DNA from: Solirubrobacterales bacterium
GTDB taxonomy: Bacteria > Actinomycetota > Thermoleophilia > Solirubrobacterales > JBBDJG01
DNA length: 64,000 bases
Direction: 5' to 3'
Assembly (NCBI GenBank): GCA_038203635.1
Contig: JBBRDT010000004.1
Coordinates: forward strand, 4,154 to 68,153
Translations under genes and position numbers: made by a program
In this document: positions 30,275-61,484 of the stretch, piece after piece
How the letters are laid out: the number at the start of each line of letters is the position of its first letter
Position numbering within the stretch: the first letter of the stretch is position 1
The notes under the pieces: generated by a model
Databases searched by the model: none
What the model saw: the letters and a program-made list of their open reading frames with translations, nothing else
Told to the model about the DNA's origin: nothing

Positions 30275-33139
30275 TCACTTCCCCGACGTCCGCAGAGTCA
30301 AAGTGGTCCGGTTGGTGCGCATCGCCGCGTTGGCAGCGTCACGGCGCACCTTCAGCACAGCCTGAACACGCAGCCGCTTCTTGCGCTTGATGACGTTGCG
30401 CCCGCTCTTCGCGACGCGCATTGACACGGTCAGCCGCCCGAGCGTGCCGGAGAAGGACTTCCGGCCGAGGTTCAGGCGGCGCGCCTTGCCTTTGCCGGAC
30501 TTCACACGCCCGGCGCTGCGAAGCTGGATCGTTCCCCTGGCTTTGAAGGCGCAGGTCATGCGCAGCCGCACGAGACCGCTGCGCGACATCTTCACCGACC
30601 TCGATGTCGGGACACAGATGCCGGCCTGCCGGACTCCGCTGGCCTCGCAGCCGGAGCCGATCTCGTCGGACGGATCCGCCGTGGTCTTGTCGGTACCGCC
30701 TCCGCAGGTGGCCGCGCCGGCTGCGCCGTCTGCGATGTTGATCTTGTCGTCGCCCGATCCGGTGCGCACGCTCTCGACGTCGGTGCGGACCTGATCGTTC
30801 TCGCCCTTTTCGCCGTCGTCCGGCGCTCCAAGCGTGTCCACCGTCACGTCGCCGCTGCGACTTGCATAGGAGACCACGTCGACCCCGTCGCCGCCGGACA
30901 TGGTGTCTGCGCCGAGGCCGCCGTCGAGGACGTCGGTCCCCGTGAAGCCGCGGAGGGTGTCGTTGCCCGCGCCCCCGTTAAGCATGTCGTCGCCCTCGGC
31001 GCCGTCCAGCGTGTCGCCGCCCGCGTCGCCGTTGATGATGTCGTTCCCGAGGTCGCCGGCGAGCCAGTCGTCACCCTCCGCTCCGGAGATCCGGTCGTTG
31101 CCGGCGCGGCCGTTGATGAAGTTGTTCTTCGCGTCGCCGGTCAGCACGTCGTCGAACGCGGACCCGCCGATGCTCTCGACGTCACCCGCGATCACGTCGT
31201 TCTCGCCAGCCATCCCGTCGCCGCCCGGTGTCGCGAGGGACACGTCGACCGGGCCGGGGTGCCCAAAGTACTCGGCGGTATCGACGCCCACGCCGCCGAC
31301 GAGGAGATCCGCTCCACGCCCGCCGTTCAAAATGTCGTTGCCGCCGCCGCCGTCGATGAACCCGTCACCGTCGTTGGCGTTGAGCCTGTCGTTGTCGAGG
31401 CCCCCGATCAGGCTTTCGATCGAGCCCGCCACGTTGTCTCCCGCGCCGGTGCTGCCGTCGTCGGCGGCGCCGTTGAGCGTGACACTCACGGGAGTCGTGG
31501 CGTCCGAGAAGTCCGCTGTGTCGCTACCGTCGCCGCCCTCATAGGAGTCGCCGCCGAAGCCGCCGAACAGATAGTCGTCGCCGAGGCCGCCGTCCATGAC
31601 GTCGCCACCCTCACCGCCCTCGAGGGTGTCGGCGCCCGCGTCGCCGCCGAGCTGGTCGCCGCCGCCGTGACCTTGGATCTGGTCGTCTCCGGGGCCGCCG
31701 AGCAGCACATTGGGGCCCGAGTCGCCCTTCAGGATGTCATTGCCGTTCCCGCCGATCACACCCTCGACGTCGGGCATGATCTGGTCGCTCACGTTGTTGG
31801 CCGGGTTCAGGTCGCGAGCAGACCCGTCGTTCGCCGCGCCGTCGAGCGTGGCAGTGACCGCATCTGCGCGACCCTCGTACGAGGCCGCGTCGAAAAGACC
31901 GTCGCCTCCGATCAGGACGTCGCCTCCGAGGCTGCCGTCCAGCACGTCGTTGCCGCCGCCACCGTTGAGGACGTTCTCGCCCGCGGGCTCGACCCGCGGA
32001 CCCCGACCGTAGAGCGCGTCGGGGTCGTTGCCGACCAGCACGTCGTCGTAAGGAGAGCCGACGACGTTCTCGATGTCCTCGCCTATGCAGTCGTTCTCGC
32101 CGGGGACGCCGTCATCGGCCGTACAGTCGCGGCGCAGCTCGGGCTCGCCCGGAGCGAGCCCTGCCGGATCCTTCCGGCAGGACGCGACCGTGAGGTAGGA
32201 GTCGGCGAGGCAGGGCTTGCCGTTGAACGAGCCTCCCTTTTGCGTGGGGCGGCAGTCCTTGCGCGCTCCGAGCGACAGAATCGCGTCGGTGGAGAAGACG
32301 TCCGGATCGGTCGCGAGCACGCCGTCCAGCGTGACCGTCACGCCCTGGGGGTGGTCCGAGTATTCGACGGTGTCCTTGCCCACACCGCCGCAGATCGTGT
32401 CCGAGCCTGGGCCCCCGTCGAAGGTATCAGGGCCGAGGCCGCCGATCAGCTCGTCGTTGCCCATGCCGCCCACGATCCTCTCGATGCCGATGAGGCCGTC
32501 GGTCGTTGTGTCGTCATCGGTGGTCCCGCCTGCCCCCGGCTCGAGGTCTACCTTGATCGACCCCGTGCGGTCCTCATATGTGGCTGTGTCGAATCCCCGT
32601 CCGCCGTTCACCGTGTCCGCGCACCGACGCGTCCCGGTGGTTCTGCAGGTGGCGGGGTCGATGCCGCCGGTGCCGCTGTTGAGCACGTCGTTGTCGCCGG
32701 ACTCGCCGTCAGCGGTGTCGCCGAAGAGGTTGTCAGGACCCGCGCCGCCGTGGAGGAAGTCTTTACCGAGACCACCGTTGATCGTGTCTGCGCCGGAGCT
32801 GCCCCTAAGGCTGTCGTCACCGTCCAATCCGTTGATGATGGCCTCGTTGACGGTGGCTGAGGTGCAGGTGACGTCGACGCCCGCTTGTAGACACCCGGCA
32901 CCGGCAGTGACGCCGGCCGCGTCCGACACGGTGTAGACGCCACCGACGCCGCCGGAGACGCTGACCGTGATCACGTTGTTGGCGGCGTCGCCGTCGACGA
33001 TCACCTTGGCCCCGGCGACCCGCGCCGTCGTTGCGAGCGCGCCGGCCGGAAACGCCGCGAGCAGCACGAGAGCCGACACCACCACGATGCGGAGCGCAGT
33101 CGCGCGGCCGCTCAGACCCACTACCTCGATCTTTCTCAC
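30275..33139 (-). CDS. Secreted calcium-binding protein with many hemolysin-type (RTX) GGxGxD repeats and a basic C-terminal domain; start uncertain (33139 or 33121)
   Basis: Sec-type signal ...LVLLAAFPAGALA; numerous GGxGxDxL nonapeptides; K/R-rich C-terminus. Confidence 0.88.
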   Translation of the reverse strand: MRKIEVVGLSGRATALRIVVVSALVLLAAFPAGALATTARVAGAKVIVDGDAANNVITVSVSGGVGGVYTVSDAAGVTAGAGCLQAGVDVTCTSATVNEAIINGLDGDDSLRGSSGADTINGGLGKDFLHGGAGPDNLFGDTADGESGDNDVLNSGTGGIDPATCRTTGTRRCADTVNGGRGFDTATYEDRTGSIKVDLEPGAGGTTDDDTTTDGLIGIERIVGGMGNDELIGGLGPDTFDGGPGSDTICGGVGKDTVEYSDHPQGVTVTLDGVLATDPDVFSTDAILSLGARKDCRPTQKGGSFNGKPCLADSYLTVASCRKDPAGLAPGEPELRRDCTADDGVPGENDCIGEDIENVVGSPYDDVLVGNDPDALYGRGPRVEPAGENVLNGGGGNDVLDGSLGGDVLIGGDGLFDAASYEGRADAVTATLDGAANDGSARDLNPANNVSDQIMPDVEGVIGGNGNDILKGDSGPNVLLGGPGDDQIQGHGGGDQLGGDAGADTLEGGEGGDVMDGGLGDDYLFGGFGGDSYEGGDGSDTADFSDATTPVSVTLNGAADDGSTGAGDNVAGSIESLIGGLDNDRLNANDGDGFIDGGGGNDILNGGRGADLLVGGVGVDTAEYFGHPGPVDVSLATPGGDGMAGENDVIAGDVESIGGSAFDDVLTGDAKNNFINGRAGNDRISGAEGDDWLAGDLGNDIINGDAGGDTLDGAEGDDMLNGGAGNDTLRGFTGTDVLDGGLGADTMSGGDGVDVVSYASRSGDVTVDTLGAPDDGEKGENDQVRTDVESVRTGSGDDKINIADGAAGAATCGGGTDKTTADPSDEIGSGCEASGVRQAGICVPTSRSVKMSRSGLVRLRMTCAFKARGTIQLRSAGRVKSGKGKARRLNLGRKSFSGTLGRLTVSMRVAKSGRNVIKRKKRLRVQAVLKVRRDAANAAMRTNRTTLTLRTSGK

Positions 33140-33502
33140 TCTCCCAAGAACCTCTCCCGCGTCCCTTGCGAGACGCCCCCTCGAAACATACCTAATTGGA
33201 GGGGAAACGCGTCGGCTGTCGACCACGCGGTCGAACATCCGCATTGACTATAGAACCTCTATGCAGGATGTGCGCAATTTCGTCATGCGGTGCAACACCG
33301 GTAGCCCTCCCTCTCCGACCGGCACGTTCCAGACGATAAAGCAGCCCTCGAGAAGCTGCGCCAGTCGATTCAGGCGCGGCACACGAGCGGTCGGCGGCAC
33401 TACTTTTACGCGGCCCTTTTTACGCTGCAAAAACCCCGCTTAGCGGAGCAAATTAAGGGCGTCGGCAGTACCCAAAAGTACGCCACCAGAGCCAAGTTTC
33501 TG

Positions 33503-33611
33503 TGCTAGAGTCGGCCACGGTTCGCCCCTACCTAAGTTTGACGGCGAGGGGTAAATGTAATCAAAGAGCATGGAAGCTCGGACCACCCCCTTCGGGGGAG
33601 GGAGGCGTTAT
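33503..33611 (+). promoter_or_regulatory. Extended -10 promoter and structured 5' UTR
   Basis: TG-c-TAGAGT at 33503-33511; hairpins gagc-atggaa-gctc (33566-33579) and ccccc-ttcg-ggggg (33586-33599) directly before the GGAGG RBS. Confidence 0.55.
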
Positions 33612-34373
33612 ATGCGTATCAAGAAGAGGATTGCGCTGCCCATGGCTTTCGCCATGTCGGCGGTCGTGATGTTGGCGATTGCCTCGTTGGGCAACGCCAC
33701 TCACAGTGTGCCCTTGAATGCAAGTCCAATCAAGGTCTCGTTGGTGCCGGTCTACAACAACTGCCCCGGCACCGGCGGTTTGACTCACGGGACGCCCTTG
33801 GCGGCCCCGTCCTGTGCGCCGGTATTGACAGGGACAGGAGCACAGATTGCCGAACCAAGCCCCAATGGCACCTCGGCGGGCAGCGCTACGCTCAAGGTGT
33901 TGCCGGGTGTCCCGGGTCCGCCTGACGACTCCGACGTGGCGGTCAAGTCCAAGATCACGGACGTTCGCTGTGCCGCCGGCGCCACAACCGCCTGCGGTAG
34001 CGCGAATACGGCTGGGTCCCCCGACTACGTGGGTGGCCTGCAGGGGAGCGCGGTGATCCGGATCACCGACCACTACAACGGCGTGACGGGTTCGTGTCCG
34101 CCGACTTGCATAACCCCCGCAACGGTGTTCGACCTGCCGTTCTCAGTCACCTACGCCGTTGCCGGTTGCGTTGCTTCGCCGGGCGACCCCAGCATCGGTA
34201 CGAAGTGCACCGCGGACACGTCCGCTAACGCAGCGGTTCCGGGTGCGGTCAAGGATGGTCAGCGTGCCGATGTTGAGGTGCGGACCATCTTCATCAACGA
34301 CGGTGGTCCCGATGGCATCGTGTCCCCGGGTACGACCTCGCAGTTCATGACCCAGGGAATCTTCATTCCCTAG
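33612..34373 (+). CDS. Secreted protein consisting solely of the 'TQGxFxP' domain (candidate major surface/structural protein)
   Basis: GGAGG RBS, signal peptide, 8 Cys, full-length similarity to the C-terminal domain of 47822-49357. Confidence 0.85.
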   Translation: MRIKKRIALPMAFAMSAVVMLAIASLGNATHSVPLNASPIKVSLVPVYNNCPGTGGLTHGTPLAAPSCAPVLTGTGAQIAEPSPNGTSAGSATLKVLPGVPGPPDDSDVAVKSKITDVRCAAGATTACGSANTAGSPDYVGGLQGSAVIRITDHYNGVTGSCPPTCITPATVFDLPFSVTYAVAGCVASPGDPSIGTKCTADTSANAAVPGAVKDGQRADVEVRTIFINDGGPDGIVSPGTTSQFMTQGIFIP

Positions 34374-34407
34374 TCACGAGTCGAAGCGCTCACTGAGCGC
34401 GATTGGT

Positions 34408-34450
34408 AAAGACCGGGAGTGGGCCTACCACTCCCGGTCTTTCGCTATTT
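34408..34450 (+). terminator. Intrinsic terminator (possibly bidirectional)
   Basis: Perfect 15-bp stem aaagaccgggagtgg / ccactcccggtcttt with 5-nt loop, then T-rich tail. Confidence 0.85.
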
Positions 34451-34503
34451 TGGACCCTGTTTTTCTGATCCGCCTACCAACGATCTCTCGTAGGAGTCAA
34501 TTG

Positions 34504-35052
34504 ATGAAACCGCCGTTCGTCTGCAGCAGAGGCCCCCGACTGGCGCTGATCGCCGTGCTGGCACTCGGTACTGTCGCCGCGCTCGGATGCGGCGATGACA
34601 AGGGCAGTGGCAGCAGCAGTGGCAGCAGCGGCGGCAAGGGCGGTGGCAAAAGCGAGTTCGAAGTGGGTGGGAAGGTCGACCACTTCGCCGGTCCGACTCC
34701 ACTGGTGGTGCGGTTGAAGGCCACCACCAAGAACGCACAGGGCGACGTCGTTTACCGGTGGCGATTCGACGACGGGACCTCGAGCGCGAAGGCCGAGGTC
34801 ACTCATACGTTCAAGCGGGCCGGCTACTACCAGGTGCTCCTGGACGGCTACGACGAGACTGGCAAGCGCGACGTCCATGCCTTCGTCTTCGGAGCCTGGC
34901 CGCCCGGCCAGTGGGCCAGGGCCCAGGACGCCACGCTTACGCAGAAGGGCGCAGCCCGTACACAGAAGGTGCAGCAGGCGCGCACCGACAAGCGCCGCAA
35001 GGAGCTGCTTGTGGAGCTGCGTCGCAAGGCGCGCGAGCAGATCGCGGGCTGA
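34504..35052 (+). CDS. PKD-domain lipoprotein, copy 1
   Basis: AGGAG RBS, lipobox ALGC, G/S linker, PKD motif YRWRFDDG...HTF..AGYYQV. Confidence 0.85.
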   Translation: MKPPFVCSRGPRLALIAVLALGTVAALGCGDDKGSGSSSGSSGGKGGGKSEFEVGGKVDHFAGPTPLVVRLKATTKNAQGDVVYRWRFDDGTSSAKAEVTHTFKRAGYYQVLLDGYDETGKRDVHAFVFGAWPPGQWARAQDATLTQKGAARTQKVQQARTDKRRKELLVELRRKAREQIAG

Positions 35053-35065
35053 GCGCCCCTAGCGC

Positions 35066-35458
35066 CTAGCTCTGCTGCTGGAGTGCCGCTTCGAGCACTC
35101 CGGCTTGCTGGCGCCCGTCGCGGCCACACTTGCGCAGCGCCGTGGTCTCTTCCTGCATGACCTGCTTCATCGTCAGCGACTTCTTCTCGATCGGGATCTC
35201 GAGCTTGGCGTCCGGGTTCTCGCGGTAGACCCTCGCCAGATCACGCACCGAAGTGAGCATCGTCTCGAAGGAGCGGTCGAACAGGTCGCTGGGCTCGGTC
35301 TGGTAGAGGGAGCAGAAATCGCCGATGTCGGCGCGCGCCTGGATCACGCTCAGCTTCTCGTTGGCCGACAGGCCGCCCTCGTCCCCGCCGCCGCAGCCTG
35401 CTAACAGCAGTGCTCCGGCGACCACTACGCAGATCATCGATGCCCATCTGGCGCTCAT
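35066..35458 (-). CDS. Small hypothetical lipoprotein, copy 1
   Basis: Lipobox LAGC; closely similar paralogue at 37076-37468. Confidence 0.8.
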   Translation of the reverse strand: MSARWASMICVVVAGALLLAGCGGGDEGGLSANEKLSVIQARADIGDFCSLYQTEPSDLFDRSFETMLTSVRDLARVYRENPDAKLEIPIEKKSLTMKQVMQEETTALRKCGRDGRQQAGVLEAALQQQS

Positions 35459-35487
35459 GCGGTGCGTAACTGTATAAGGTCGCCCGC

Positions 35488-36480
35488 TTGAAGCGGATCT
35501 TGTTCGTCTTCAACCGTGAGTCGAGCTTTGTCACGATCGACCGGACGGTTCTCGAGCAGCGCTGGAGCGTCGAATCCTGGCGCCAGCAGGGACCGTTGGT
35601 CAATCTCCCGCGGCTGGTGCGGGAGGTTTCGCGCAGCGATCTCGTGTTCGGGTGGTTCGCGTCCTGGCACACCTTCCTGCCGGTCGCACTGGCCTGGGTG
35701 ATGCGCAAGCCGTCGGTGATCGTGATCGGCGGCTACGACACGGCCCGCATGCCGGAGATCGGCTACGGACTCCAGCAGCGGGGGGCGATGCGACGGGTGA
35801 GCCGCTGGGTCATGCGGCACGCGACACGCCTCGTGACGAACTCCCACTACAGCCGCGCCGAGGCGGCCGCCAACGTCGGTATCGACCCGCAACGCATCAC
35901 CGTCGTCTACCACGGCGTGCCGGATCCGTTCGGGGAGCTTTCGTCTACACAGCGCGAGCCCATAGCTCTGACCGTCGGGGTCGTCGATCGTCCCAACCTG
36001 GAGCGGAAGGGCCTGCGGTCCTTCGTCCAGGCCGCGACGCACCTGCCGGATGTCGCTTTCGTCCTTGCCGGGCGGTGGGACGACGCGTCGGCCGACGAGC
36101 TGCGCGATCACGCGCCCCCCAACGTGACCCTCACGGGCTGGGTGGAGCAGGATGTGCTGAACCGGCACATGCGACATGCCTCGGTGTACGTCCAGGCCTC
36201 GGCGCACGAAGGGTTCGGAATGTCGGTGGCCGAGGCGATGCTCGCCGGCTGCATCCCCGTGACAACACGGGCGGGCGCCCTTCCGGAGGTGGTGGACGAG
36301 ATCGGCGTGCAGGTGGACGACGCGGACCCGCGTCGGCTGGCCCAGGGGATCGAGCAGGCGCTTGCGATGGACTACGGGGCACGGGAGCGCGCCCGGCGAC
36401 GTGTCCTCGACTGCTTCAGCCTCGACGCGCGCAGCCGCGGCCTGCACGAGGTTGTGGCAGAGGCGCTCGGGGAATCGTGA
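35488..36480 (+). CDS. GT4 family glycosyltransferase
   Basis: RKG, EGFGMSVAEAM (EX7E), GALPEV; TTG start 7 nt after TAAGGT. Confidence 0.9.
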   Translation: MKRILFVFNRESSFVTIDRTVLEQRWSVESWRQQGPLVNLPRLVREVSRSDLVFGWFASWHTFLPVALAWVMRKPSVIVIGGYDTARMPEIGYGLQQRGAMRRVSRWVMRHATRLVTNSHYSRAEAAANVGIDPQRITVVYHGVPDPFGELSSTQREPIALTVGVVDRPNLERKGLRSFVQAATHLPDVAFVLAGRWDDASADELRDHAPPNVTLTGWVEQDVLNRHMRHASVYVQASAHEGFGMSVAEAMLAGCIPVTTRAGALPEVVDEIGVQVDDADPRRLAQGIEQALAMDYGARERARRRVLDCFSLDARSRGLHEVVAEALGES

Positions 36481-36557
36481 CCCGCCACTTCCGGTTTTCG
36501 CTATTTTGGACCCGGTTCTTGATCCGCTTGCCAACGATCTCTCGTAGGAGTCAATTG

Positions 36558-37070
36558 ATGAAACTGCCGTTCGACCGAAGTAGAGGCCCCCGGCTGGCGC
36601 TGATCACCTTGCTGGCTCTCGGCGCTGTCGCCGCGCTGGGATGCGGCGATGACAAGAGCGACAGCAAGGGTCGGTTGAAGGTGACCGGCGACGTCGACCA
36701 CTTTGCCGGCCCGACTCCACTGGTGGTGCGATTGAAGGCCTCCTCCAAGAACGGGGACGGCGACATCCTGTACCGGTGGCGGTTCGACGACGGCACCTCG
36801 AGCACGAAGAGCGAGGTCACCCATACGTTCCCGCGGGCGGGCTACTACCAGGTGATCCTGGACGCCCGCGACGAGAGTGGCGAGAACGACCGCGAGTCGT
36901 TCCTGTTCGGAGCCTGGCCGCCCGCGCAGTGGTCGAGGGCGCAGACCACTCCACTCACGAAGAAGAGTGCAGCCCAAACACAGAAGGTGCAGCAGGCGCG
37001 CACCGACAAGCGCCGCAAGGAGCTCCGTGTGGAGCTGCGCCGCAGGGCACGCGAGCAGATCCAGGGCTGA
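36558..37070 (+). CDS. PKD-domain lipoprotein, copy 2
   Basis: Same RBS context, lipobox ALGC, PKD motif; lacks the G/S linker. Confidence 0.85.
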   Translation: MKLPFDRSRGPRLALITLLALGAVAALGCGDDKSDSKGRLKVTGDVDHFAGPTPLVVRLKASSKNGDGDILYRWRFDDGTSSTKSEVTHTFPRAGYYQVILDARDESGENDRESFLFGAWPPAQWSRAQTTPLTKKSAAQTQKVQQARTDKRRKELRVELRRRAREQIQG

Positions 37071-37075
37071 GCGGT

Positions 37076-37468
37076 CTAGCTCTGCTGCCGGAGTGCCGCT
37101 TCGAGCACTCCGGCCTGCTGGCGCCCGTCGCGGCCGCACTTGCGCAGCGCCGTGGTTTCTTCCTGCATGACCTGCTTCATCGTCAGCGTCTTCTTCTCGG
37201 CCGGGATCTCGAGCTTCGCGTCCGGGTTCTCGCCGTAGACCCTGGCCAGGTCGCGCACCGCCGTCAGCATCGTCTCGTAGGAGCGGATGAACAGGTCGCT
37301 GGGCTCTGTCTTGTAGAGCGAGCAGAACTCGGCGATGTCCGTGCGCGCCTGGATCACGCTCACCTCGTCGCCCGAGAGGCCGCCCCCGTCGTCACCGCCG
37401 CCGCAGCCTGCGAACAGCAGTGCTCCGGCGACCACTACGCAGACCATCAATGTCCATCTGGCGCTCAC
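37076..37468 (-). CDS. Small hypothetical lipoprotein, copy 2
   Basis: GTG start, lipobox FAGC; paralogue of 35066-35458. Confidence 0.8.
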   Translation of the reverse strand: MSARWTLMVCVVVAGALLFAGCGGGDDGGGLSGDEVSVIQARTDIAEFCSLYKTEPSDLFIRSYETMLTAVRDLARVYGENPDAKLEIPAEKKTLTMKQVMQEETTALRKCGRDGRQQAGVLEAALRQQS

Positions 37469-37569
37469 GCGGTGCGTAACTGTACAGATCTGTCGGGCAG
37501 GTGGTCACGGTCCCTGCAGCCACGCGGAAGCACACGACCACGATGCTAATGTCGCCGCCCTTGGGAGCC

Positions 37570-38604
37570 GTGAGCACCGCCACCGTCAACCTCTTCAGCG
37601 ATACGCAGACGCAGCCCACCGCGGCCATGCGGCACGCGATGGCGTACGCGGAGGTCGGCGACGAGCAGCGGCTCGCCGACCCGACCGTGAACGCGCTTCA
37701 GGAACGCGTCGCCGAGCTGCTCGGCCACGAGGCGGCGCTGTTCCTCCCATCGGGAACGATGTGCAACGCGATCGCGTTCCGCCTGCACGTGCGACCCGGC
37801 GGTGACGAGGTGATCCTCGACCGGACGTCGCACCCGGTCTCATACGAGGCGGGCGGGCCGGCGGCGCTGTCGGGAGCGATGCTGAGCGTCCTCGATGGTG
37901 ACGGCGGCGTCTTTACCGCGGCGCAGGTGGAGGGCGCCGTGCGCCCGGCCGGTGACCGGTACGGCCCCCGCTCGCGCCTGGTTTCGGTGGAGCAGACGAC
38001 GAACATCGGCGGCGGCCGGGTCTGGCCGTTGGCGGACATACGGGCGGTGCTGGAAGTCGCGCGTCGCAACGGGATGCGCGCGCACCTGGACGGGGCGCGG
38101 CTGATGAACGCCGTCGTCGCCGGCGGCGTCCCGGCGGCCGACTTCGCGAGCGGGTTCGATACCGCATGGATCGATCTGACCAAGGGACTCGGCGCGCCCG
38201 TCGGCGCTGTGCTGGCGGCGTCGCAAGAGCTGATCGAGGAAGCCTGGCGCTACAAGCAGATGATGGGCGGAGCGATGCGTCAGGCGGGCATCCTCGCCGC
38301 CGCAGGCCTGCACGCCCTCGACCACCATGTGGAGCGCCTGGCCGAGGACCACGCCAATGCACGGCGCCTCGCCGAAGGTCTCGCCGAGCTACCCGGTGTC
38401 GAGATCGACATCGCGCGCGTCCAGACCAACATTCTCGTGTTTGGAGTGCCCGACGCATACGGGTTGTGCGGCGCGCTCTACGAGCGCGGCGTGCAGCTGG
38501 CACCGCTGGGCCCGCAACGGCTGCGCGCGGTCACGCATCTGGACGTCGATGCCGGCGGCATCGACCGTGCCCTCACGGTTTTTCGTCAGCTGCTGGCTCC
38601 CTGA
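37570..38604 (+). CDS. ltaE: Low-specificity L-threonine aldolase family protein
   Basis: SDT.T.PT, VGDE, PSGTMCN, HLDGARL, TKGLGAPVG, GGAMRQAG. Confidence 0.9.
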   Translation: MSTATVNLFSDTQTQPTAAMRHAMAYAEVGDEQRLADPTVNALQERVAELLGHEAALFLPSGTMCNAIAFRLHVRPGGDEVILDRTSHPVSYEAGGPAALSGAMLSVLDGDGGVFTAAQVEGAVRPAGDRYGPRSRLVSVEQTTNIGGGRVWPLADIRAVLEVARRNGMRAHLDGARLMNAVVAGGVPAADFASGFDTAWIDLTKGLGAPVGAVLAASQELIEEAWRYKQMMGGAMRQAGILAAAGLHALDHHVERLAEDHANARRLAEGLAELPGVEIDIARVQTNILVFGVPDAYGLCGALYERGVQLAPLGPQRLRAVTHLDVDAGGIDRALTVFRQLLAP

Positions 38605-38959
38605 ACGAGCGCCTGAGGAGCTGCGCCGCGAAGAACAGCAACAGGCAGGCGAACCCGACCTCGAGGGACCGCTCGGAGACGTTGTTTGCGATCACCGTGC
38701 CGGCGACCACGCCAAGTGGGGAGAGCGCGCCGATCACGCCCGCGTCCTTCAGGCGCACATTGCCGTACCCGTACTGGCGCCAGGTGCCGACGAGCGCGAC
38801 CAGCACGATGGACACGAGCGATGTTGCCTCCGCCTCGAGCTGCGACTGGCCCATGAAGATGGACAGGGCGGGGACGAACAGGATCCCCCCGCCGACGCCG
38901 ACGAGGCCGCCGACCGCACCGGCGAAGAGCCCGAGCAGGATGGCGGCGAGCTCGCTCAA
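38573..38959 (-). CDS. Half-size TauE/SafE (TSUP) membrane protein B
   Basis: TTGA overlap start; GGLVGVGGG, ATSL; about 4 TM segments. Confidence 0.8.
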   Translation of the reverse strand: MSELAAILLGLFAGAVGGLVGVGGGILFVPALSIFMGQSQLEAEATSLVSIVLVALVGTWRQYGYGNVRLKDAGVIGALSPLGVVAGTVIANNVSERSLEVGFACLLLFFAAQLLRRSFREPAADEKP

Positions 38960-39339
38960 CCGATCAGCAGCTTGATTGCGACGCCAACGAGCAGCGCTGC
39001 GAACAGCAGCGACACGGCCCGGCCCGACAGGCGTTGCTGCAGGGCGGTGCCGGCAACCACCCCCGCGATGGCGGGAGCGCCGACCAGGAATCCCTTGCCG
39101 AGGTCGACGTTGCCGTATGCGCCGTGGGCAATCGCCGCGAACAGCCCGATCAGTACGATCGCGGCGAGCGACGTGCCGGTGGCGACGTGCTCGGAGTACC
39201 CGAACCACAGCACGAGCATCGGCACGATCACGGTGCCGCCGCCAACCCCGAACAGCCCGCTGAACGTCCCCGCCACGGTGGCGACGAAAGCAAGCTTCAG
39301 GAGGCGCGGCCCGGACTCGCTCGGGGATGGCCCGGACAT
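38956..39339 (-). CDS. Half-size TauE/SafE (TSUP) membrane protein A
   Basis: SGLFGVGGG..IVP, ATGTSL; about 4 TM segments. Confidence 0.82.
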   Translation of the reverse strand: MSGPSPSESGPRLLKLAFVATVAGTFSGLFGVGGGTVIVPMLVLWFGYSEHVATGTSLAAIVLIGLFAAIAHGAYGNVDLGKGFLVGAPAIAGVVAGTALQQRLSGRAVSLLFAALLVGVAIKLLIG

Positions 39340-39360
39340 GGTCCGGGATACTAGAGCCGC
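39340..39360. promoter_or_regulatory. Overlapping divergent leaderless promoters
   Basis: Only 21 bp between divergent ATGs; GATACT (+) and TAGTAT (-) each lie 8 nt from a start; no RBS. Confidence 0.55.
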
Positions 39361-40173
39361 ATGACGCCGCTTCCCGGCACGGCCACGGCCGAGCGCCTGC
39401 TCGCTCCTCTCCGCGAACGACCGCAGCGCTCAGCCATCCTCTGCGACATCGACGGCACCCTCGCGCCGATCGTGGAGCGCCCCGAGCTCGCGACCGTGCC
39501 ACCCCGCGCAAGACACCTGCTGGAGCAGCTGTCGACCCGTTACGGGCTCGTCGCCTGCGTGTCGGGCCGCCGCGCGACGGTCGCGCGGCAGATGGTCGGC
39601 ATCGATGGGCTCCTCTACGTCGGCAACCACGGGCTCGAGCGGCTGGAGCCCGGTTCCGAGGTGGCCGTGCTCAACCCGGAGATCCAGCCGCTCGCCGAGC
39701 GCGTCCGCCGGTTCGCGGCCGAGCGCTTCACTCCGGAGTTGGAGCGGCTCGGGATCACACTCGAGGACAAGGACGCGATCTGGACCTTCCACTACCGGCG
39801 CGCCGGCGACGAGGATGCGGCCCGCGCGGCGCTGGAGGGCGTGGCGCAGGGTGCGCACGCCGCCGGGCTTGACCCGCACCACGGACGGAAGGTCCTCGAG
39901 ATCAGGCCCACCGCAGCCGTGGACAAGGGCACGGCCGTGGCGGGAGTGCTCGAGGGCCGGGAACTCTCCCGGGCTCTGTTCGGCGGAGACGACACCACCG
40001 ACGTGGACGCTTTCCGGCGGCTGCGAGAGCTGGCCGGCGAAGGTGCACTCGAGGGTGTGGTGTGCGTGGGCGTCGCGTCGGCCGAGACCCCGGCGGCGGT
40101 CGTCGAAGAGGCGGACCTGGTCGTCGAGGGCACGGAGGGCTTCCTGCGGATCCTCGAGAGCCTGGCCGCCTGA
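39361..40173 (+). CDS. otsB: Trehalose-6-phosphate phosphatase
   Basis: HAD DIDGTLAPI, VSGR, GNHG, HYR, EIRP..DKG, GDDTTDVDAF. Confidence 0.92.
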   Translation: MTPLPGTATAERLLAPLRERPQRSAILCDIDGTLAPIVERPELATVPPRARHLLEQLSTRYGLVACVSGRRATVARQMVGIDGLLYVGNHGLERLEPGSEVAVLNPEIQPLAERVRRFAAERFTPELERLGITLEDKDAIWTFHYRRAGDEDAARAALEGVAQGAHAAGLDPHHGRKVLEIRPTAAVDKGTAVAGVLEGRELSRALFGGDDTTDVDAFRRLRELAGEGALEGVVCVGVASAETPAAVVEEADLVVEGTEGFLRILESLAA

Positions 40174-40186
40174 GGGGCAGAGGCGC

Positions 40187-40711
40187 TTGCTCTACACCGA
40201 CTTCCTCAAGTCGACCGTGCTGCTCGCCGCCGCTGAGGGAACGGCGCTCGCGGTGGTCGCCATCGCCGTGGCCGCCGCCCAGGACGACACCCCGACGATC
40301 ATCTTCGCCGTCTCGTGGTGGGTCGTTGCCGTCGTCTTCGGTGCGTGGCTGGGACGTCGCCCGCAGACGACGAGAGCAATCGGCCGGCTGCTGGCCTCTG
40401 CACGCACGTCGAACACGCTCCCCGACATCAGGCCGGGATCGGTGCTGCTGAACCGGCTCTGGCTCCTGGCTGTGTCCGCCGTGGTGGCCGCCGGCCTGTC
40501 GTGGCTGTTTCCCCAGTTCTCCGCGGTGGTTGCCGGCGGTGCGTTCCTGGTCGCGCTCGCATGGCGCAAGCAGGAGCCGGCGGTGACCGCGATCGAAGAG
40601 CGCGACGGCGTGCGCTTCTACGTTGTCCCGACCTCGCCGTTCGGCGCGATCGAGCTGACGCGGACCCCGGGACTGAGGCGCGTCGACACCGTCAACGGCG
40701 CCGGCTTGTAG
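40187..40711 (+). CDS. Hypothetical membrane protein (about 4 TM)
   Basis: TTG start after GAGG; hydrophobic segments; GC-rich third codon positions. Confidence 0.7.
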   Translation: MLYTDFLKSTVLLAAAEGTALAVVAIAVAAAQDDTPTIIFAVSWWVVAVVFGAWLGRRPQTTRAIGRLLASARTSNTLPDIRPGSVLLNRLWLLAVSAVVAAGLSWLFPQFSAVVAGGAFLVALAWRKQEPAVTAIEERDGVRFYVVPTSPFGAIELTRTPGLRRVDTVNGAGL

Positions 40712-42446
40712 CCGCCTTCTTGCGACCGCGCTTGCGCAGCTTGTCGAGCTGCGGCCAGGTGCGCGTGTTCGCGACGTGTTCCTTGGTGAGCCAGGCCCGG
40801 CGCGCGGTCGCGACGCCGTAACGGACCACGCTCAGCGTGCGCCTGCTGTGCGCGTCGGAGTCGATCACGATCAACACGCCTGCCTCCGCGGCGAGCCGGG
40901 CGTGCACGTCGTTCAGGTCGCGCCGGTCGGGATTTGCGTTGATCTCGAGGAACGTCCCGGTCTCGGCGGCGTGGGCGATCAGCTGCTCGACGTCGACCGC
41001 ATACGGCTCCCGCCGCAGGATCTTGCGGCCCGTCGGGTGGCCGATGACGTCCACCAGCGGATGGTCCATCGCGGCCATCATGCGCTTCGTCATCTTCTCC
41101 TCGCCCATGCGAAAAGACGTATGGGTGGAGGCCACGACCCAGTCCAGCTCCTCGAGCACCTCGTCCGCATAGTCGAGTGACCCGTCGGTGTTGATGTTCA
41201 CCTCGGTTCCCGCGAGCACGGTGAACCCGTCGAGCTCCTCGTTCAATTGCCGCGCGCGCTCGACCTGCCGTAACAGCTCGTCCGCCTGCACGTCGTTGCC
41301 GAACCCGTGCGAGGCGGAGTGGTCCGTGACAGCGAGGTACTTGTAGCCGCGCTTCTGCGCAGCCCTGGCCATGTCCGGGAGCGAGCTGCGCCCATCCGAC
41401 AGCGTGGTGTGCGAATGCAGGTCCCCCTTGAGGTCGGCCTCGGTTACGAGCTTCGGCAACTCCCCGGCGATCGCTGCCTGCAGCTCGCCTCGTCCCTCGC
41501 GCAGCTCAGGCTCGATGCACGGAAGGCCGAGCACCTCGTAGACGCCCTCTTCCGTTGGGCAGCGGTGCACCTTGCCCGACTCGTCCTCCTCGATCCCGTA
41601 CTCGCTCACGTGCATACCGCGGCGCACGGCGTACTCACGTAGCGCGACGTTGTGCTGCTTGGAACCCGTCAGGTGCTGGAGCACGTTGCCGAACTGGTCC
41701 GGCTCGACGACCCGGAAGTCGATCCGTAGACCGTTGTGGGTCGTCCCCCGCGCTCCCGCCTCGCCGCCCGAGCCGACCTCGCTCAAAAGCTCCATCTCGG
41801 TGAATGCGCGCGTCAGCTCGGCCGGGTCGTGTGAGGTCGCGATCACGTCGAGGTCCTTGCACGTGTCGGTCATCCGCCGGGCGCTGCCGGCGATCTCGAC
41901 CCGGTCTGCGGCGGGGTGCTTGCGCAGGTGGTCGACGATCTGCTCGCCGATCGCCAGCACGGCTGACAGCAGGACCCGCTGAGCGGGGCCCTCCTCGACG
42001 TGCCTCGAGAGCGCCTTGGCGATGTTCTGCTCGGCCTTTGGCCCGAGTCCGGCGATCTGGCGCAGGCGCTCGTTCTCAGCGGCCTCCTTCAAGTCCTCGA
42101 GTGTCGAGATGCCGAGCTCGTCGTAGATCTTGCGAGCCGTCTTGGCCCCCAGGCCCGGCAGCTGGGTGAACCGCACGAGCTCACCGGGAAACTTCGCGCG
42201 CAGCTTCTCAGCCGCGGGGATGTCGCCCGTCTCGACCAGCGCGCGGATCTTCTCCTGGAGCGTCTTGCCGACGTTGCGGACCTCAGTGGCCCGGTCCTCC
42301 AGCGCCAGCTGGGCGACCGAGACCGGGGAGTTGCGGATCGAATTGGCCGCCTCCCGGTAGGCGACCACGCGATAGATCACCGCCCCGTCGAGCTCGTACA
42401 GGTCCGCCAACTCGTCCATGGCCGCGGCGATCTCGGCGTTCTTCAT
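40692..42446 (-). CDS. polX: DNA polymerase X / PHP-domain 3'-5' exonuclease
   Basis: MKNAEIA start, HhH motifs, AGSARR, DLDV, TGSKQHN, GDLHSHT, TDHS, HPTGR, DSDAH. Confidence 0.95.
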   Translation of the reverse strand: MKNAEIAAAMDELADLYELDGAVIYRVVAYREAANSIRNSPVSVAQLALEDRATEVRNVGKTLQEKIRALVETGDIPAAEKLRAKFPGELVRFTQLPGLGAKTARKIYDELGISTLEDLKEAAENERLRQIAGLGPKAEQNIAKALSRHVEEGPAQRVLLSAVLAIGEQIVDHLRKHPAADRVEIAGSARRMTDTCKDLDVIATSHDPAELTRAFTEMELLSEVGSGGEAGARGTTHNGLRIDFRVVEPDQFGNVLQHLTGSKQHNVALREYAVRRGMHVSEYGIEEDESGKVHRCPTEEGVYEVLGLPCIEPELREGRGELQAAIAGELPKLVTEADLKGDLHSHTTLSDGRSSLPDMARAAQKRGYKYLAVTDHSASHGFGNDVQADELLRQVERARQLNEELDGFTVLAGTEVNINTDGSLDYADEVLEELDWVVASTHTSFRMGEEKMTKRMMAAMDHPLVDVIGHPTGRKILRREPYAVDVEQLIAHAAETGTFLEINANPDRRDLNDVHARLAAEAGVLIVIDSDAHSRRTLSVVRYGVATARRAWLTKEHVANTRTWPQLDKLRKRGRKKAATSRRR

Positions 42447-42480
42447 CGCAGACACGTTAGAGACTGGCGATACTCCCGCG

Positions 42481-43224
42481 ATGCCGCGAGACTGGCCTCC
42501 CGGCCCGGTGTGGGTCGTGCTGCCCACCTACAACGAGCGCGAGAACCTCGAGCCGGTTGTGACCGGCGTGCGTGCGGCGCTCGACGGCGTGGCTCCGGAT
42601 CACAGGGTGCTGATCGTGGATGACTCCTCCCCGGACGGCACGGGCCGCCTCGCCGAGGAGCTCGCGGCCCGCGATCCCGCGGTGAGCGTCCTGCACCGGC
42701 CGCAGAAGGAGGGGCTGGGCCAGGCCTACATAGCGGGGTTCGGAGTCGCGCTCGCCGAGGGGGCCGCCCTTGTGATCGAAATGGACGCGGACCTCTCGCA
42801 CGACCCGCGACACCTGCGGATGATGGTGGAGGCGGCGCACAAGGCCGACCTCGTGCTCGGCTCGCGGTACGTCCCCGGGGGACAGGTGCGCAACTGGGGC
42901 GCGATGCGGCGGCTCGTGAGCCGCGGCGGCTGCTGGTATGCCCGCGTCGTCCTGGGCGTCGGCGTACGTGACCTGACGGGTGGCTTCAAGTGCTTCCGGC
43001 GGGAGGTCCTGGAGGCGCTCGACCTAACTCACATCAGGTCGCAGGGCTATGCCTTCCAGGTGGAGCTGACCTACAGGGCGATCCAGCGCGGGTTCCGCGT
43101 CATGGAGATCCCGATCGTGTTCACCGACAGGACCGTCGGCCAGAGCAAGATGTCTCGCCGGATCGTGCTCGAGGCTATGTGGATGGTGCCGATACTGAGG
43201 GCGGGCCGCAGGCACTATACGTAA
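42481..43224 (+). CDS. Polyprenol monophosphomannose synthase (Ppm1/Dpm1-like GT2)
   Basis: LPTYNEREN, VDDSSPDGTG, GLGQAY, MDADLSH, DLTGGFK, GYAFQVE. Confidence 0.92.
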   Translation: MPRDWPPGPVWVVLPTYNERENLEPVVTGVRAALDGVAPDHRVLIVDDSSPDGTGRLAEELAARDPAVSVLHRPQKEGLGQAYIAGFGVALAEGAALVIEMDADLSHDPRHLRMMVEAAHKADLVLGSRYVPGGQVRNWGAMRRLVSRGGCWYARVVLGVGVRDLTGGFKCFRREVLEALDLTHIRSQGYAFQVELTYRAIQRGFRVMEIPIVFTDRTVGQSKMSRRIVLEAMWMVPILRAGRRHYT

Positions 43225-43275
43225 TGAAGTATTGACTGTCTAGACTTGTGTGGCAACCGAGCAGAAGGGAGCATC

Positions 43276-43602
43276 GTGGCTGGCCAGATCACCGACGTGA
43301 CAGATGGCACCTTTGAAGTGGAGGTACTGGAAGCAGAGGGCGCAGTACTGGTGGACTTCTGGGCGCCCTGGTGCGGCCCGTGCCGAGTCGTCTCCCCCGT
43401 TCTGGAGGAGATCCACAACGAGCGCGAGGACCTGCGGGTGGTCAAGCTGAACGTCGACGAGAACCAGCAGACGGCGGTGAAGTACGAGGTGCTCTCGATC
43501 CCCACGATGATCCTGTTCAAGGAGGGGGCGATGGTGAAGAAGCTGATCGGGGCGCAGCCGAAGGCGCGCATCGAGGCCGAGCTGGAGCTTGAGCCTGCTT
43601 AG
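43276..43602 (+). CDS. trxA: Thioredoxin
   Basis: DFWAPWCGPC, SIPT, GAQPK; AAGGGAG RBS before GTG. Confidence 0.95.
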   Translation: MAGQITDVTDGTFEVEVLEAEGAVLVDFWAPWCGPCRVVSPVLEEIHNEREDLRVVKLNVDENQQTAVKYEVLSIPTMILFKEGAMVKKLIGAQPKARIEAELELEPA

Positions 43603-43659
43603 TTTTCCTGCGTAGCTGCGTAACTGCATAACTGCGGCTGGAGCGGGCATTCTGTAGAC

Positions 43660-43891
43660 ATGCCGGAGGCGCAGCGAGCACCGGTCGCGTACAAGGCGGT
43701 GGTCCTCGTCGCCGTTCGTGGCCGTGCCGATCATCTCGGCTGCGGTGATCCTCACGGAGGAGATCTGGGTGCGCGAGATCGAGGCGTCCCACGAGAACCG
43801 CGTCACGACCGACATCGTGATCCCGACCAGCGAGGACCTACCGGAGCGCGGTCCGCCGGAGGAGTTGGCGGCCGAGCGCGAGCGTCTTTAG
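43660..43891 (+). pseudogene. Probable internally deleted membrane-transporter gene (AI-2E/PerM-like termini)
   Basis: MPEAQRAPVAYKAVVLVA is joined out of frame near 43714 to FVAVPIISAAVILTEEIWV...ERL*. Confidence 0.5.
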
Positions 43892-43990
43892 CGTCGGCTC
43901 CATTCATACGAATCGTTCGGCCTTAGCCTCGAAGAGTTGACCTGGCGGCGACGATCCGTCACGCAATCGTGGGCACCCTCCGCCCATGGC

Positions 43991-44041
43991 CGAACTTTCG
44001 CGATCTGCACCCACCCCTCGGGTGCGAAACGCGAAAGTTCG
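43991..44041. repeat. REP-like / terminator-like palindromic hairpin
   Basis: cgaactttcgcg/cgcgaaagttcg 12-bp outer stem plus gcaccc/gggtgc inner stem, downstream of ileS. Confidence 0.75.
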
Positions 44042-44058
44042 CGTGGTCGGTCACAGCT

Positions 44059-47211
<3,153 letters not shown>

Positions 47212-47223
47212 TGGCGGGTGATT

Positions 47224-47670
47224 CTAGGCTGCGCGTTCGAGCTTCCGGCACAGCCGGGCGAGCTCGCGCTTCTCACCGTCGTCCAGGACGGTGAACGTGT
47301 CCTGGACCCGGTGGGCGTGGCCGGGGAAGAGGTCCTCCACCAGCGCACGGCCGGAATCGGTGAGACTGATCATCAGCGCGCGCCGGTCCCGCGGGTCCGT
47401 CTCGCGGCGGATCAGGCGGCGCTGCTCGAGGGTCGAGGTGACCTCGCTGGCGTTGGCCTTGCTGAGGCCGAGACGCTGGCGGAGCGTCCGCAGGCCGAGG
47501 ACGCCCCCGGCCGATTCGACCACCACCAGCATCCCGAACGCGGTCGGAGAGAGCCCGCGGCGCTCCAGCTCGCGGCCGAGCTTGCGCGTGACCCGGGTCT
47601 CGGCACGCACGAGCGCATCGAGGGCGCGATGCGCCAGCGGGTCCTGCAGCAGGGTCGAAAGGTCGCTCAC
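47224..47670 (-). CDS. MarR family transcriptional regulator
   Basis: wHTH with L...L.LSK..., DPRDRR...ISLTDSG, L...EK.EL..L..KL. Confidence 0.88.
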   Translation of the reverse strand: MSDLSTLLQDPLAHRALDALVRAETRVTRKLGRELERRGLSPTAFGMLVVVESAGGVLGLRTLRQRLGLSKANASEVTSTLEQRRLIRRETDPRDRRALMISLTDSGRALVEDLFPGHAHRVQDTFTVLDDGEKRELARLCRKLERAA

Positions 47671-47821
47671 CTGGAGGGACGACGCTAGGCGTCGGTCCGG
47701 ACGAAAACAGCCAGGTGCGAGCGATTTGGCGATCGACGGTAGAGTTAGGGCGGTCAGGGGGGCGCTCAGGCGCCGTCGTACAAGTCTCGCGGAGCGATCC
47801 GCAGCGGGGTAGGTTGTCTTG

Positions 47822-49357
47822 ATGGGAACGAGATGGTTGCTGTTGGCGGCTCTCGCCGGGGCAGTGACGGCCGGGACACCCACCGTGGCCCAGGCCTCCT
47901 TCCCGGGGACGAACGGGAGGATCGCCTTCGGGCGCGCCGTCGACACGCCGACCGAGACGCGCTGCATCCACACGGTCATCTTCAACGGCGCGGGCGACAC
48001 GATCCTGCTCCCCCCGTGCGACCCGGAGGCCGAGAGCAAGCCGCGATGGGCCTCCAACGCGGGCCAGATCGCGTACGAGGGGTGGGCCGGACAGCTCGAC
48101 ATCGTCAATGCCGACAGCACCAACCTGCGCGAGTTCGTCTTCGACAGCGGAGTGGGGACCACCGGCTTTGGCTGGTCTCCCGACAGCGCCCAGATCGCCG
48201 TCAGCTGGTTCGATTGCCCCGACGGGGGAACATGTGGATCCCGGATCGAGAAAATGACTGCCGCGACCGGGAGCTACACCACGATCCTGAACACCACGGA
48301 CTACGTGTCCGGAATCGACTGGTCGCCCGATGGAACGCTGATCGCGTTCGCGCGTCAGTTCCAGCTCTACAAGATCAATGCCGATGGGACGGGTCAGGTG
48401 GCGATCGCACCGGGCTCGCCGGGAGACAACTACGCGCCCAGCTGGTCTCCGAACCAGACCAAGATCGCCTTCGTCAGCACCCGTGACGAGAACGAGGAGA
48501 TCTACGTCATGAACGCGAACGGCACGGGGCAGACCCGGCTGACCGACATGGTGGGGTCCGACACGTCGCCGCGATGGTCTCCGGACGGTACGAAGATCGT
48601 CTTCGAGAGCGACCGGGACGGCAATCAGGAGATCTACACGATGAACGCGGACGGCACGGGCCAGACGAGGGTCACCAACGATCCCGCCGCCGACACGGCA
48701 CCCGACTGGCAATCCCTGCCGATCAACGGCTACGTGCGGCCCAAGAACGCGACCACGGTTCGCGCCTCGCTGGTGCCGGCCTATAACCAGTGCGTCTCTT
48801 CAAACCGTCTTCACGGGCCACCGCTCGGATCCGCGTCGTGCAACCCGCCCGGCCAGGTCTCGAACGAGCTGACGGTCGGCGGTCCCGAGTCCAACGGGAA
48901 GCCGGCGAATTTCCAGGGCTTCGTGCGCTACACCGCCTTGCCGGGCAATACGGGCACGCCGGCCGACGAGGCGGACGTGCGCATCACCATCCAGCTGTCC
49001 GACATCCTCCGGCAGGGGACCCTGACCGACTACAACGGTGAGCTGGCCGCAAAGACGGTCATACGAATCACGGACAAGTCGAACACTCCGCATCCAAGTG
49101 GACCGGGTCCAGGCACCGTGTTCGACCACCCCTTGCGCGCCACGGTCCCGTGCACACCCACGGCGGACGTCAACGTAGGCGCAACCTGCAACCTGGTCAC
49201 GACCGCCGACGCAGTCCTGCCCGGCACCGTCACCGAGACCAAGCGGACGGTCTGGGGAATGGCCTCCGTGCAGGTCGAAGACGGGGGGGCGGACAGCGAC
49301 GCCGATACCTTCGGCGACAACGTCGTCTTCCTGACGCAGGGAGTCTTCGTCCCCTGA
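47822..49357 (+). CDS. Secreted TolB-like (PD40) beta-propeller with C-terminal 'TQGxFxP' domain
   Basis: Signal peptide, FPGTNGRIAF, repeated WSPDG..IAF / EIY.MNADG, C-terminal domain homologous to 33612-34373. Confidence 0.88.
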   Translation: MGTRWLLLAALAGAVTAGTPTVAQASFPGTNGRIAFGRAVDTPTETRCIHTVIFNGAGDTILLPPCDPEAESKPRWASNAGQIAYEGWAGQLDIVNADSTNLREFVFDSGVGTTGFGWSPDSAQIAVSWFDCPDGGTCGSRIEKMTAATGSYTTILNTTDYVSGIDWSPDGTLIAFARQFQLYKINADGTGQVAIAPGSPGDNYAPSWSPNQTKIAFVSTRDENEEIYVMNANGTGQTRLTDMVGSDTSPRWSPDGTKIVFESDRDGNQEIYTMNADGTGQTRVTNDPAADTAPDWQSLPINGYVRPKNATTVRASLVPAYNQCVSSNRLHGPPLGSASCNPPGQVSNELTVGGPESNGKPANFQGFVRYTALPGNTGTPADEADVRITIQLSDILRQGTLTDYNGELAAKTVIRITDKSNTPHPSGPGPGTVFDHPLRATVPCTPTADVNVGATCNLVTTADAVLPGTVTETKRTVWGMASVQVEDGGADSDADTFGDNVVFLTQGVFVP

Positions 49358-61416: not shown

Positions 61417-61484
61417 CCACTAGTCTGATTGAGCCGATGGGATGTAGTCGTAGGCAGGGATCGGCCACGCTTTTGCATGTCCGA

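Follow-up and report, generated by a model that had tools for sequence, protein, structure and literature searches.

Two genes in a 64,000-nucleotide stretch of DNA from a Solirubrobacterales bacterium (GenBank assembly GCA_038203635.1, contig JBBRDT010000004.1, positions 4,154 to 68,153 of the forward strand; the whole stretch is called the window below) encode exported proteins with a common C-terminal domain. The gene at 33612-34373 specifies a signal peptide and a single copy of the domain and is referred to as the stand-alone gene, while the gene at 47819-49357 carries the domain behind a PD40 propeller. The original prediction, drawn from the sequence letters, had held that the two proteins are related end to end, and BLASTP bore this out with 74 identities in 226 positions (33%, E 7e-24), from residue 48 of the open reading frame (ORF) 33570-34373 and residue 308 of the 47819-49357 protein, in each case to the last residue. 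All the motifs that it had listed were found in both proteins, namely SLVP.YN.C, HG.PL..SC.P, D..DV, DY.G.L and VIRITD, as well as P.TVFD, DGG.D and F.TQG.F.P. The four cysteines that it had called conserved (C35, C51, C155 and C167, in the numbering of the PD40 protein's domain) are invariant in an alignment of 113 sequences, as is a single histidine, H42. The spacing of the cysteines by 16 and 12 residues suggests, most simply, two disulfides; nothing supported a chemistry of the thioester, isopeptide or sortase-like type at the invariant Cys and His. The domain, without a match in Pfam, NCBIfam or PDB sequences, is on this evidence previously unnamed, and we call it the QGVFVP-tail domain.

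Table 1. Features of the two genes that carry the QGVFVP-tail domain in the window.
Feature	Coordinates	Strand	Basis or remark
Shine-Dalgarno-like GGGAGG	33600..33605	+	Six bases 5' of the ATG at 33612; direct reading
Stand-alone gene, 253 amino acids, stop codon 34371-34373; signal peptide and one domain copy	33612..34373	+	Translation, BLASTP, recorded gene call P0153 (253 amino acids, 100%), tree
Predicted Sec signal peptide MRIKKRIALPMAFAMSAVVMLAIASLGNA	33612..33698	+	Cleavage before THS inferred; A-x-A/TH.RP pattern in stand-alone forms of four other genomes
Mature stand-alone domain, 224 amino acids; extra Cys-bearing inserts relative to the typical form	33699..34370	+	
Extreme C-terminal tail TQGIFIP of the stand-alone gene	34350..34370	+	
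Intrinsic-terminator-like hairpin (15 pairs) and T-run	34408..34442	+	
Exported PD40 propeller protein of 512 amino acids ending in the domain	47819..49357	+	
Signal peptide and PD40 (TolB-like) propeller cargo	47819..48688	+	PD40 1.5e-22; TIGR02800 130 bits, under cut-off
C-terminal domain, 222 amino acids; input for structure and dimer predictions	48689..49354	+	Conserved N-terminal extension GYVRPKNA, residues 14-21
Tail TQGVFVP, domain residues 216-222	49334..49354	+	Predicted antiparallel pairing with partner residues 187-191

The ATG at 33612 is the likely start of the stand-alone gene because of the GGGAGG six bases upstream and the gene call on record. Candidates for the ribosome-binding site and the terminator of the original prediction are thus both in place (Table 1); for the promoter that it had also assigned to this gene, a consensus scan returned no sigma-70-like promoter in 33200-34600. 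An intergenic stretch of about 370 bases (33245-33611) precedes the gene. The description of the second protein as TolB-like held for the fold and the PD40 repeats and failed for the family: the N-terminal part scored 130.5 bits against the TIGR02800 equivalog cut-off of 343, so that the protein is TolB-like only in fold and lies below the threshold for the TolB of the Tol-Pal system. Since unrelated housekeeping genes (encoding isoleucyl-tRNA synthetase, PolX, thioredoxin, trehalose phosphatase and a GT4 transferase) separate the two window genes, these do not form one locus.

In Pfam (2025 copy) and NCBIfam release 20 no model covers the domain: none matched it in P0001 and P0002 at E<=1, in the other 37 carriers at E<=1e-5 or in the 87 representatives scanned at E<=1e-12. 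PDB sequences, searched with a profile, gave no match at E<=10. Database entries name the stand-alone protein 'hypothetical protein', and the full-text literature, with subscription journals outside its coverage, yielded nothing on this domain. In none of these three sequence collections is it a known enzyme or binding module.

To the source genome (3.33 Mb in 151 contigs, 83% complete) the query P0001 matched in 39 places, and a hidden Markov model (HMM) made from 32 ORF tails likewise retrieved 39 ORFs above 100 bits, with a domain of about 205-220 amino acids. In 36 of these ORFs the match reaches the last residue; of the other three, one runs on for a single residue beyond the match, one is a frameshifted copy and one a fragment. 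The tail reads QG[VIL][FLMY][VIA]P in 32 ORFs. In a carrier at C1:32832-33914 (+) the domain leaves the frame near its end and the QGVFVP tail lies in another frame, within a 104-amino-acid ORF ending at about 33840, which is probably a frameshifted copy or an assembly error. Among relatives we sampled 41 genomes, with the source assigned to an uncultured family of Solirubrobacterales (Actinomycetota, Thermoleophilia), here f1. The domain was present in 16 of the 17 other f1 genomes with 26-75 matches each (15 of 16 if the unpublished G008 is left aside), and fuller scoring of G007 raised the number to 108. No match was obtained in G010, a reduced f1 genome of about 1.6 Mb (91% complete), which also lacks sortase and keeps one penicillin amidase free of the domain. 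It was missing, furthermore, from all 23 genomes of five sister families and from a phylum-wide sample of 300 others. When 1.84 billion cluster representatives were searched with the profile, 3,208 matched at E<=1e-3 and 1,625 at E<=1e-30; the domain closes the protein in 148 of the 150 best, and 30 of 30 related loci were titled Solirubrobacterales or Actinomycetota metagenome-assembled genome. Among the genomes searched, the domain is restricted to one uncultured Solirubrobacterales family, in which roughly 1-3% of the genes bear it. The original picture of one major and one minor subunit was too small for a genome with about 40 carriers and a relative with up to 108, and the window copy that it was built on is a divergent paralogue.

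The HMM survey of distribution and partners that had been suggested as a check thus placed the domain in one family, among the genomes searched, and behind very diverse exported cargo. Glucose/sorbosone dehydrogenase (GSDH) is the partner in seven of the 39 source-genome proteins, four of which also contain PKD and CBM96; PD40 propellers occur in six, and penicillin amidase, AXE1/S9-type esterase or peptidase, and FG-GAP in two each. DUF11 arrays are found in two carriers, one of them of 2,759 amino acids with a purple-acid-phosphatase head, and multicopper oxidase, subtilase, plastocyanin-like, lactonase and DUF7948/SBBP domains in one carrier each. Thirteen carriers fall into no family, among them three stand-alone proteins and two fragments. 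Contig C75:2091-12589 (-) holds three tandem carriers, each with the layout GSDH - PKD - CBM96 - domain, and a fourth such layout lies on C20. For a wider view of the cargo we scanned the first 87 representatives of at least 330 amino acids that fitted the size limit among the best 150: PD40 was seen in 25 and nothing at E<=1e-12 in 39, while others contained type I phosphodiesterase, phosphoesterase, HtaA, polysaccharide deacetylase, NHL, RCC1, LDL-receptor-B, Vgb lyase and Calx-beta, among others. What stands ahead of the domain are exported enzymes, propellers and adhesin-like repeats that are unrelated to one another. A Sec-type signal peptide was predicted heuristically in 25 of the 39 carriers, with several others cut by contig ends or of uncertain start; the heuristic is unspecific (905 of 2,117 crude gene calls were flagged) and of no use for estimating a share of the secretome. 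Orthologous penicillin-amidase frames measure about 1,060-1,080 amino acids in f1 and about 885-900 in the sister families, and two of the five penicillin-amidase paralogues of the source genome bear the domain, so that the module was added to pre-existing exoenzymes within this lineage.

The domain is discrete, as had been proposed, occurring as signal peptide plus domain in the stand-alone proteins and behind N-terminal cargo in the fused ones. The canonical stand-alone protein has 248 amino acids, no Pfam domain and more than 100 clusters at 90% identity. Two canonical genes are present in the source genome, on contigs C9 and C2, and the window gene is a third, divergent paralogue, 53-54% identical to both. 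Genomes of the same genus have four or five canonical copies, and the closed genome G011, from another genus, has seven frames of stand-alone size among 45 matches. In the stand-alone proteins of four genomes the signal peptide is followed by A-x-A/T-H-x-R-P-[KG], so that the inferred mature N-terminus would coincide exactly with G-Y-x-R-P-K, the conserved motif at the boundary to the domain of the fused proteins. Lysine-based cross-linking at this RPK motif is unlikely, the Lys being Gly in one genus and Arg in several paralogues. In a FastTree phylogeny of 119 domains (113 distinct), 28 rows were labelled stand-alone by a length rule, and 25 of these fall into two clades, one of 7 rows from genus g6 (support 99) and one of 18 rows from other genera (support 86); the window copy sits on a long branch in a 15-row subclade (support 97). 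The remaining three were mislabelled by the length rule, two being identical to a short fused protein and one a truncated frame. The stand-alone label changes 4 times on the tree versus 25 times in shuffles. The cargo-less forms are old, multi-copy and distinct, which speaks for a function of the domain's own and against a disposable signal. The window copy neighbours genes for an RTX and a PKD protein, the C9 copy ECF sigma/GH18/PhoD genes and the C2 copy secE-nusG-rplKAJL, with no partner gene conserved among the three. The GC content at third codon positions (GC3) could not be used as a sign of stand-alone expression, its ranges being uninformative: 0.77-0.83 in stand-alone genes against about 0.88 in other carriers, and 0.82-0.90 in the ribosomal protein genes on C2 (crude gene calls).

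These cargo-less forms bear directly on whether the domain is a sorting signal, that is, a folded C-terminal domain that a dedicated machine for export or attachment would recognise and perhaps cleave off, as in the case of the C-terminal domain (CTD) of type IX secretion. Such a role would account for the strict extreme C-terminal position with its invariant tail, for a copy number per genome as high as in known sorting domains and for the confinement to one lineage. We nevertheless regard it as very improbable, since conserved cargo-less paralogues (three in the source genome, seven in G011) would be pointless if the domain were nothing but a signal, Sec signal peptides are already present on the carriers, and the outer-membrane assembly protein looked for was not detected. 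In addition, no candidate machine emerged, within a search that did not include a genome-wide co-occurrence screen, and sortase occurs in families with and without the domain: PF04203, detected in 14 of the 17 f1 genomes and 15 of the 23 from sister families, does not discriminate between them.

Using AlphaFold2 with the 113-row alignment, we obtained a model of the domain with a predicted local distance difference test (pLDDT) of 88.5 and a predicted template-modelling score (pTM) of 0.83, which superseded a run with only the 36 source-genome paralogues (pLDDT 55). The predicted fold is all-beta, a Greek-key sandwich of about ten strands; in the monomer, residues 1-20 of the N-terminal extension are less confident (block means 61 and 69). 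The nearest solved folds by VIA-align are superoxide dismutase (SOD) or CCS-type chains, which fill the top 14 rows with Z 5.9-7.8, 97-118 residues aligned and root-mean-square deviations of 3.2-4.3 A. Foldseek against the PDB gave none at E<=0.001, and the ESM Atlas offered no lead, with a best score of 0.82, to unnamed clusters. The weak fold matches (Z below 8, Foldseek E above 0.01) include carbohydrate-binding modules. The Z of 7.8 to Cu,Zn-SOD may reflect only a common Greek-key arrangement; identity with this enzyme was rejected, the 113 sequences having one invariant His in place of the six His and one Asp that serve as metal ligands. Cu,Zn superoxide dismutase is the best structural neighbour and may share the Greek-key arrangement with the domain; the alignment takes in only some half of the latter, about 110 of its 222 residues, and no sequence match exists.

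The pairing of two copies was predicted with ESMFold2 and our own alignment for one pair, the domain of the PD40 protein, a typical fused form, with itself. The interface score ipSAE came to 0.86, 0.78 and 0.87, while the highest-scoring of three controls gave 0.00, with a partner pLDDT of at least 77 and at least 74% of the contacts common to the runs. Among solved structures, 20 of 30 homodimers and 1 of 23 monomers attain the mark used, a calibration that is rough here, given the use of our own alignment. In the predicted dimer, which is symmetric and closed, the interface takes in 104 of 222 residues: the tail of each copy runs antiparallel along partner residues 187-191 (i+j about 407), and the N-terminal extension and first strand (residues 12-35) cross to the partner. 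The interface holds 26 of the 42 positions that are invariant or nearly so, compared with 78 of the 180 other positions (odds ratio 2.1, p 0.039). The self-assembly envisaged by the original prediction is thus matched by a predicted oligomeric interface, although in the form of a closed symmetric dimer and not of a filament or lattice. Similarly, the C-terminal strand, for which a donor-strand role had been considered, is predicted to lie in the interface and to pair with the other copy, but the exchange is reciprocal within a closed dimer.

We propose that the QGVFVP-tail domain is a coupling module, new and restricted to this lineage, that ties the lineage's exoproteins together, a proposal that in our judgement is about evenly balanced between right and wrong. 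The invariant tail of each copy would add as a beta-strand onto the other copy, and the conserved N-terminal extension with the first strand would pack across the partner. Because paralogues agree at the interface positions, any carrier might pair with any other, and the exoproteins might be coupled to each other or to stand-alone subunits and thus be held in a cell-associated protein assembly. From the predicted pairing we infer that carriers may be retained at the surface or co-assemble.

Several observations weigh against this coupling role. A closed dimer alone retains nothing at the cell, and we found neither a membrane- or wall-anchored carrier nor a receptor; no canonical lipobox was seen in the carrier and stand-alone N-termini inspected, and a search among repeat proteins for a receptor or scaffold gave none that was convincing; nor were there conserved neighbours. 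The dimer itself is a prediction for the typical fused form with itself, and the enrichment of conserved positions in its interface is weak for an interface that spans almost half of the domain. In the AlphaFold2 monomer residues 213-217 already form a strand, and residues 211-220 are confident (block mean pLDDT 93), at this end only the domain's two final residues being less so; the tail need not be exchanged. Moreover, stand-alone and fused forms differ at interface positions 15 (H versus Y), 189 (V/I versus W) and 221 (I versus V), and the stand-alone forms may accordingly pair among themselves rather than with cargo carriers.

The repeat search turned up PKD arrays, CBM96/fn3 proteins, an acidic low-complexity protein and an 889-amino-acid protein with repeats of about 50 amino acids. 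The last, at C42:17311-19977 (-), looks exported, contains about 16 repeats (..VQAAFRP..G.FG.P..LS....A..PQVA.D..GNA.AVWT) and has no Pfam match. Three further large window proteins, which look exported, end in strongly basic tails of about 100 amino acids that are rich in Lys and Arg and contain Cys: one of 1,116 amino acids without Pfam match at 26914-30264 (-), an RTX-repeat protein of 989 amino acids at 30275-33244 (-) and one of 506 amino acids at 61437-62954 (+). The first and the last are weakly linked by phmmer (E 0.0012), and such tails may represent a second kind of C-terminal module in the source organism.

With neither anchor nor receptor found, the predicted pairing could also mean that each enzyme is simply a homodimer through its own tail domain, which would then serve stability without a role in co-assembly or localisation, the stand-alone proteins having an unrelated function. 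The homodimer prediction is strong, and the nearest fold class, the Cu,Zn-SOD-like barrels (Z 7-7.8), comprises classic tight dimers. We consider this rather unlikely. It is hard to explain why one dimeriser should be used for 26-108 unrelated exported proteins per genome and in none of the sister families; within a single enzyme family, the penicillin amidases, some paralogues bear the domain and others lack it; the interface residues are alike across paralogues, which permits cross-pairing; and the cargo-less forms are conserved and multi-copy.

A second conserved surface is left unexplained by the predicted dimer. It comprises 16 conserved positions off the interface, clustered at 106-117, 155-171 and 198-203, and this patch (DVR..DY.G, the second Cys loop and DGG.DG) might bind calcium or a wall polymer or mediate higher-order contacts. 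Other anchors look scarce in the 83%-complete genome: SLH (PF00395) gave no matches in the genome and none in the carriers, and Omp85 (PF01103) was not detected in it, whereas control genomes matched. The carriers end in QG.F.P with no hydrophobic helix behind, and they are not LPXTG/LAXTG sortase substrates, the genome having only two LAxTG ORFs, neither of them with the domain. These two, at C73:10560-11618 (-) and C88:11372-11953 (+), are low-complexity proteins with GHGEKDHG-type and PTVTT-type repeats, and each adjoins a sortase gene. A domain gene lies within about 0.2-3.5 kb of sortase in three relatives (G001:C6:312466-315661, G003:C6:666720-667873 and G009:C35:12097-16531), which may be chance or one conserved synteny block; none lies on the short sortase contigs of the source genome.

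The patch and the scarcity of anchors raise the alternative that the domain is itself a non-covalent wall anchor, a lectin-like sandwich binding a lineage-specific wall glycopolymer or peptidoglycan, with dimerisation as a side feature and the stand-alone copies as small wall-bound proteins. The organism looks monoderm, having no detected Omp85, and the lack of SLH with only two sortase substrates against about 40 carriers would leave room for such an anchor. The cargo consists of exoenzymes that gain from retention, the conserved Asp/Tyr/Gly-rich patch lies off the interface, lineage restriction fits a lineage-specific ligand, and carbohydrate-binding modules are among the structural neighbours. 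These neighbours are however distant, no ligand, synthesis locus or co-occurring gene was identified, and the domain is almost without exception extreme C-terminal, unlike wall-binding modules such as SLH or LysM, which are found at either protein end. On balance we hold a wall anchor to be unlikely. The same patch might, together with the exchange of tail strands, build an open-ended polymer or two-dimensional coat in which the stand-alone paralogues are the bulk subunit and 40-100 enzymes, propellers and adhesins are plugged in, an extension of the coupling module that we think fairly improbable.

Proteome-wide terminal modules of surface and exported proteins are a kind already known, while the fold family and the predicted pairing mechanism of the QGVFVP-tail domain are unlike the known ones. 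The closest analogy for a coupling module would be the CWB2 or SLH modules that organise the surface proteins of some Firmicutes, such as the CWB2 family of Clostridioides difficile, with SlpA and about 28 paralogues, and the SLH-domain proteins of Bacillus anthracis. As in these systems, one module is placed on dozens of exported proteins with otherwise unrelated domains in a monoderm host, a main cargo-poor protein stands beside cargo-bearing paralogues, and the module oligomerises, here by prediction. In contrast to them, the domain shows no sequence relation (Pfam found no CWB2 in the carriers either), is single and of about 210 amino acids instead of three repeats, sits at the extreme C-terminus and is predicted to dimerise by its tail strand, with wall binding only a candidate function. 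The CTD of type IX secretion in Bacteroidota likewise forms a beta-sandwich, confined to one lineage, with which tens of exported proteins in a genome end; it measures about 80-100 amino acids, whereas the QGVFVP-tail domain is about twice that size, also exists without cargo and belongs to an actinobacterial host. Membership in that family (Por_Secre_tail / TIGR04183) was rejected, as no family model matched and the host is an actinomycetotal organism in which no Omp85 was found.

Like the dockerins of cellulosomes, the domain would couple many exoenzymes from their C-terminal ends, and its Asp/Gly loops (DGG.DG) may be of the calcium type, but there was no dockerin match and no cohesin-like scaffold, and its predicted partner is another copy of itself. 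With the donor-strand pilins of chaperone-usher systems it would share a terminal strand predicted to lie on the sheet of the other subunit and an N-terminal extension of lower confidence in the monomer. It departs from them in that the predicted dimer is reciprocal and closed, not head-to-tail, that the monomer model is already a complete fold and that no chaperone or usher context was seen.

Each of the proteome-wide terminal modules known as LPXTG, SLH, CWB2, dockerin and type IX CTD gave a new view of how bacteria organise their exports. The QGVFVP-tail domain belongs to a widespread uncultured soil family of Thermoleophilia, in which it is appended to enzymes that sister families export without it, and for its action a concrete mechanism can be offered, the reciprocal pairing of an invariant seven-residue tail. 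Should the open-ended coat prove true, one uncultured family of soil actinobacteria would have invented a modular, enzyme-displaying surface layer. If the domain is a coupling module, it would provide a marker for predicting exoproteomes in metagenomes, possibly a compact self-pairing tag for protein engineering, and an entry point to the cell envelope of Thermoleophilia.

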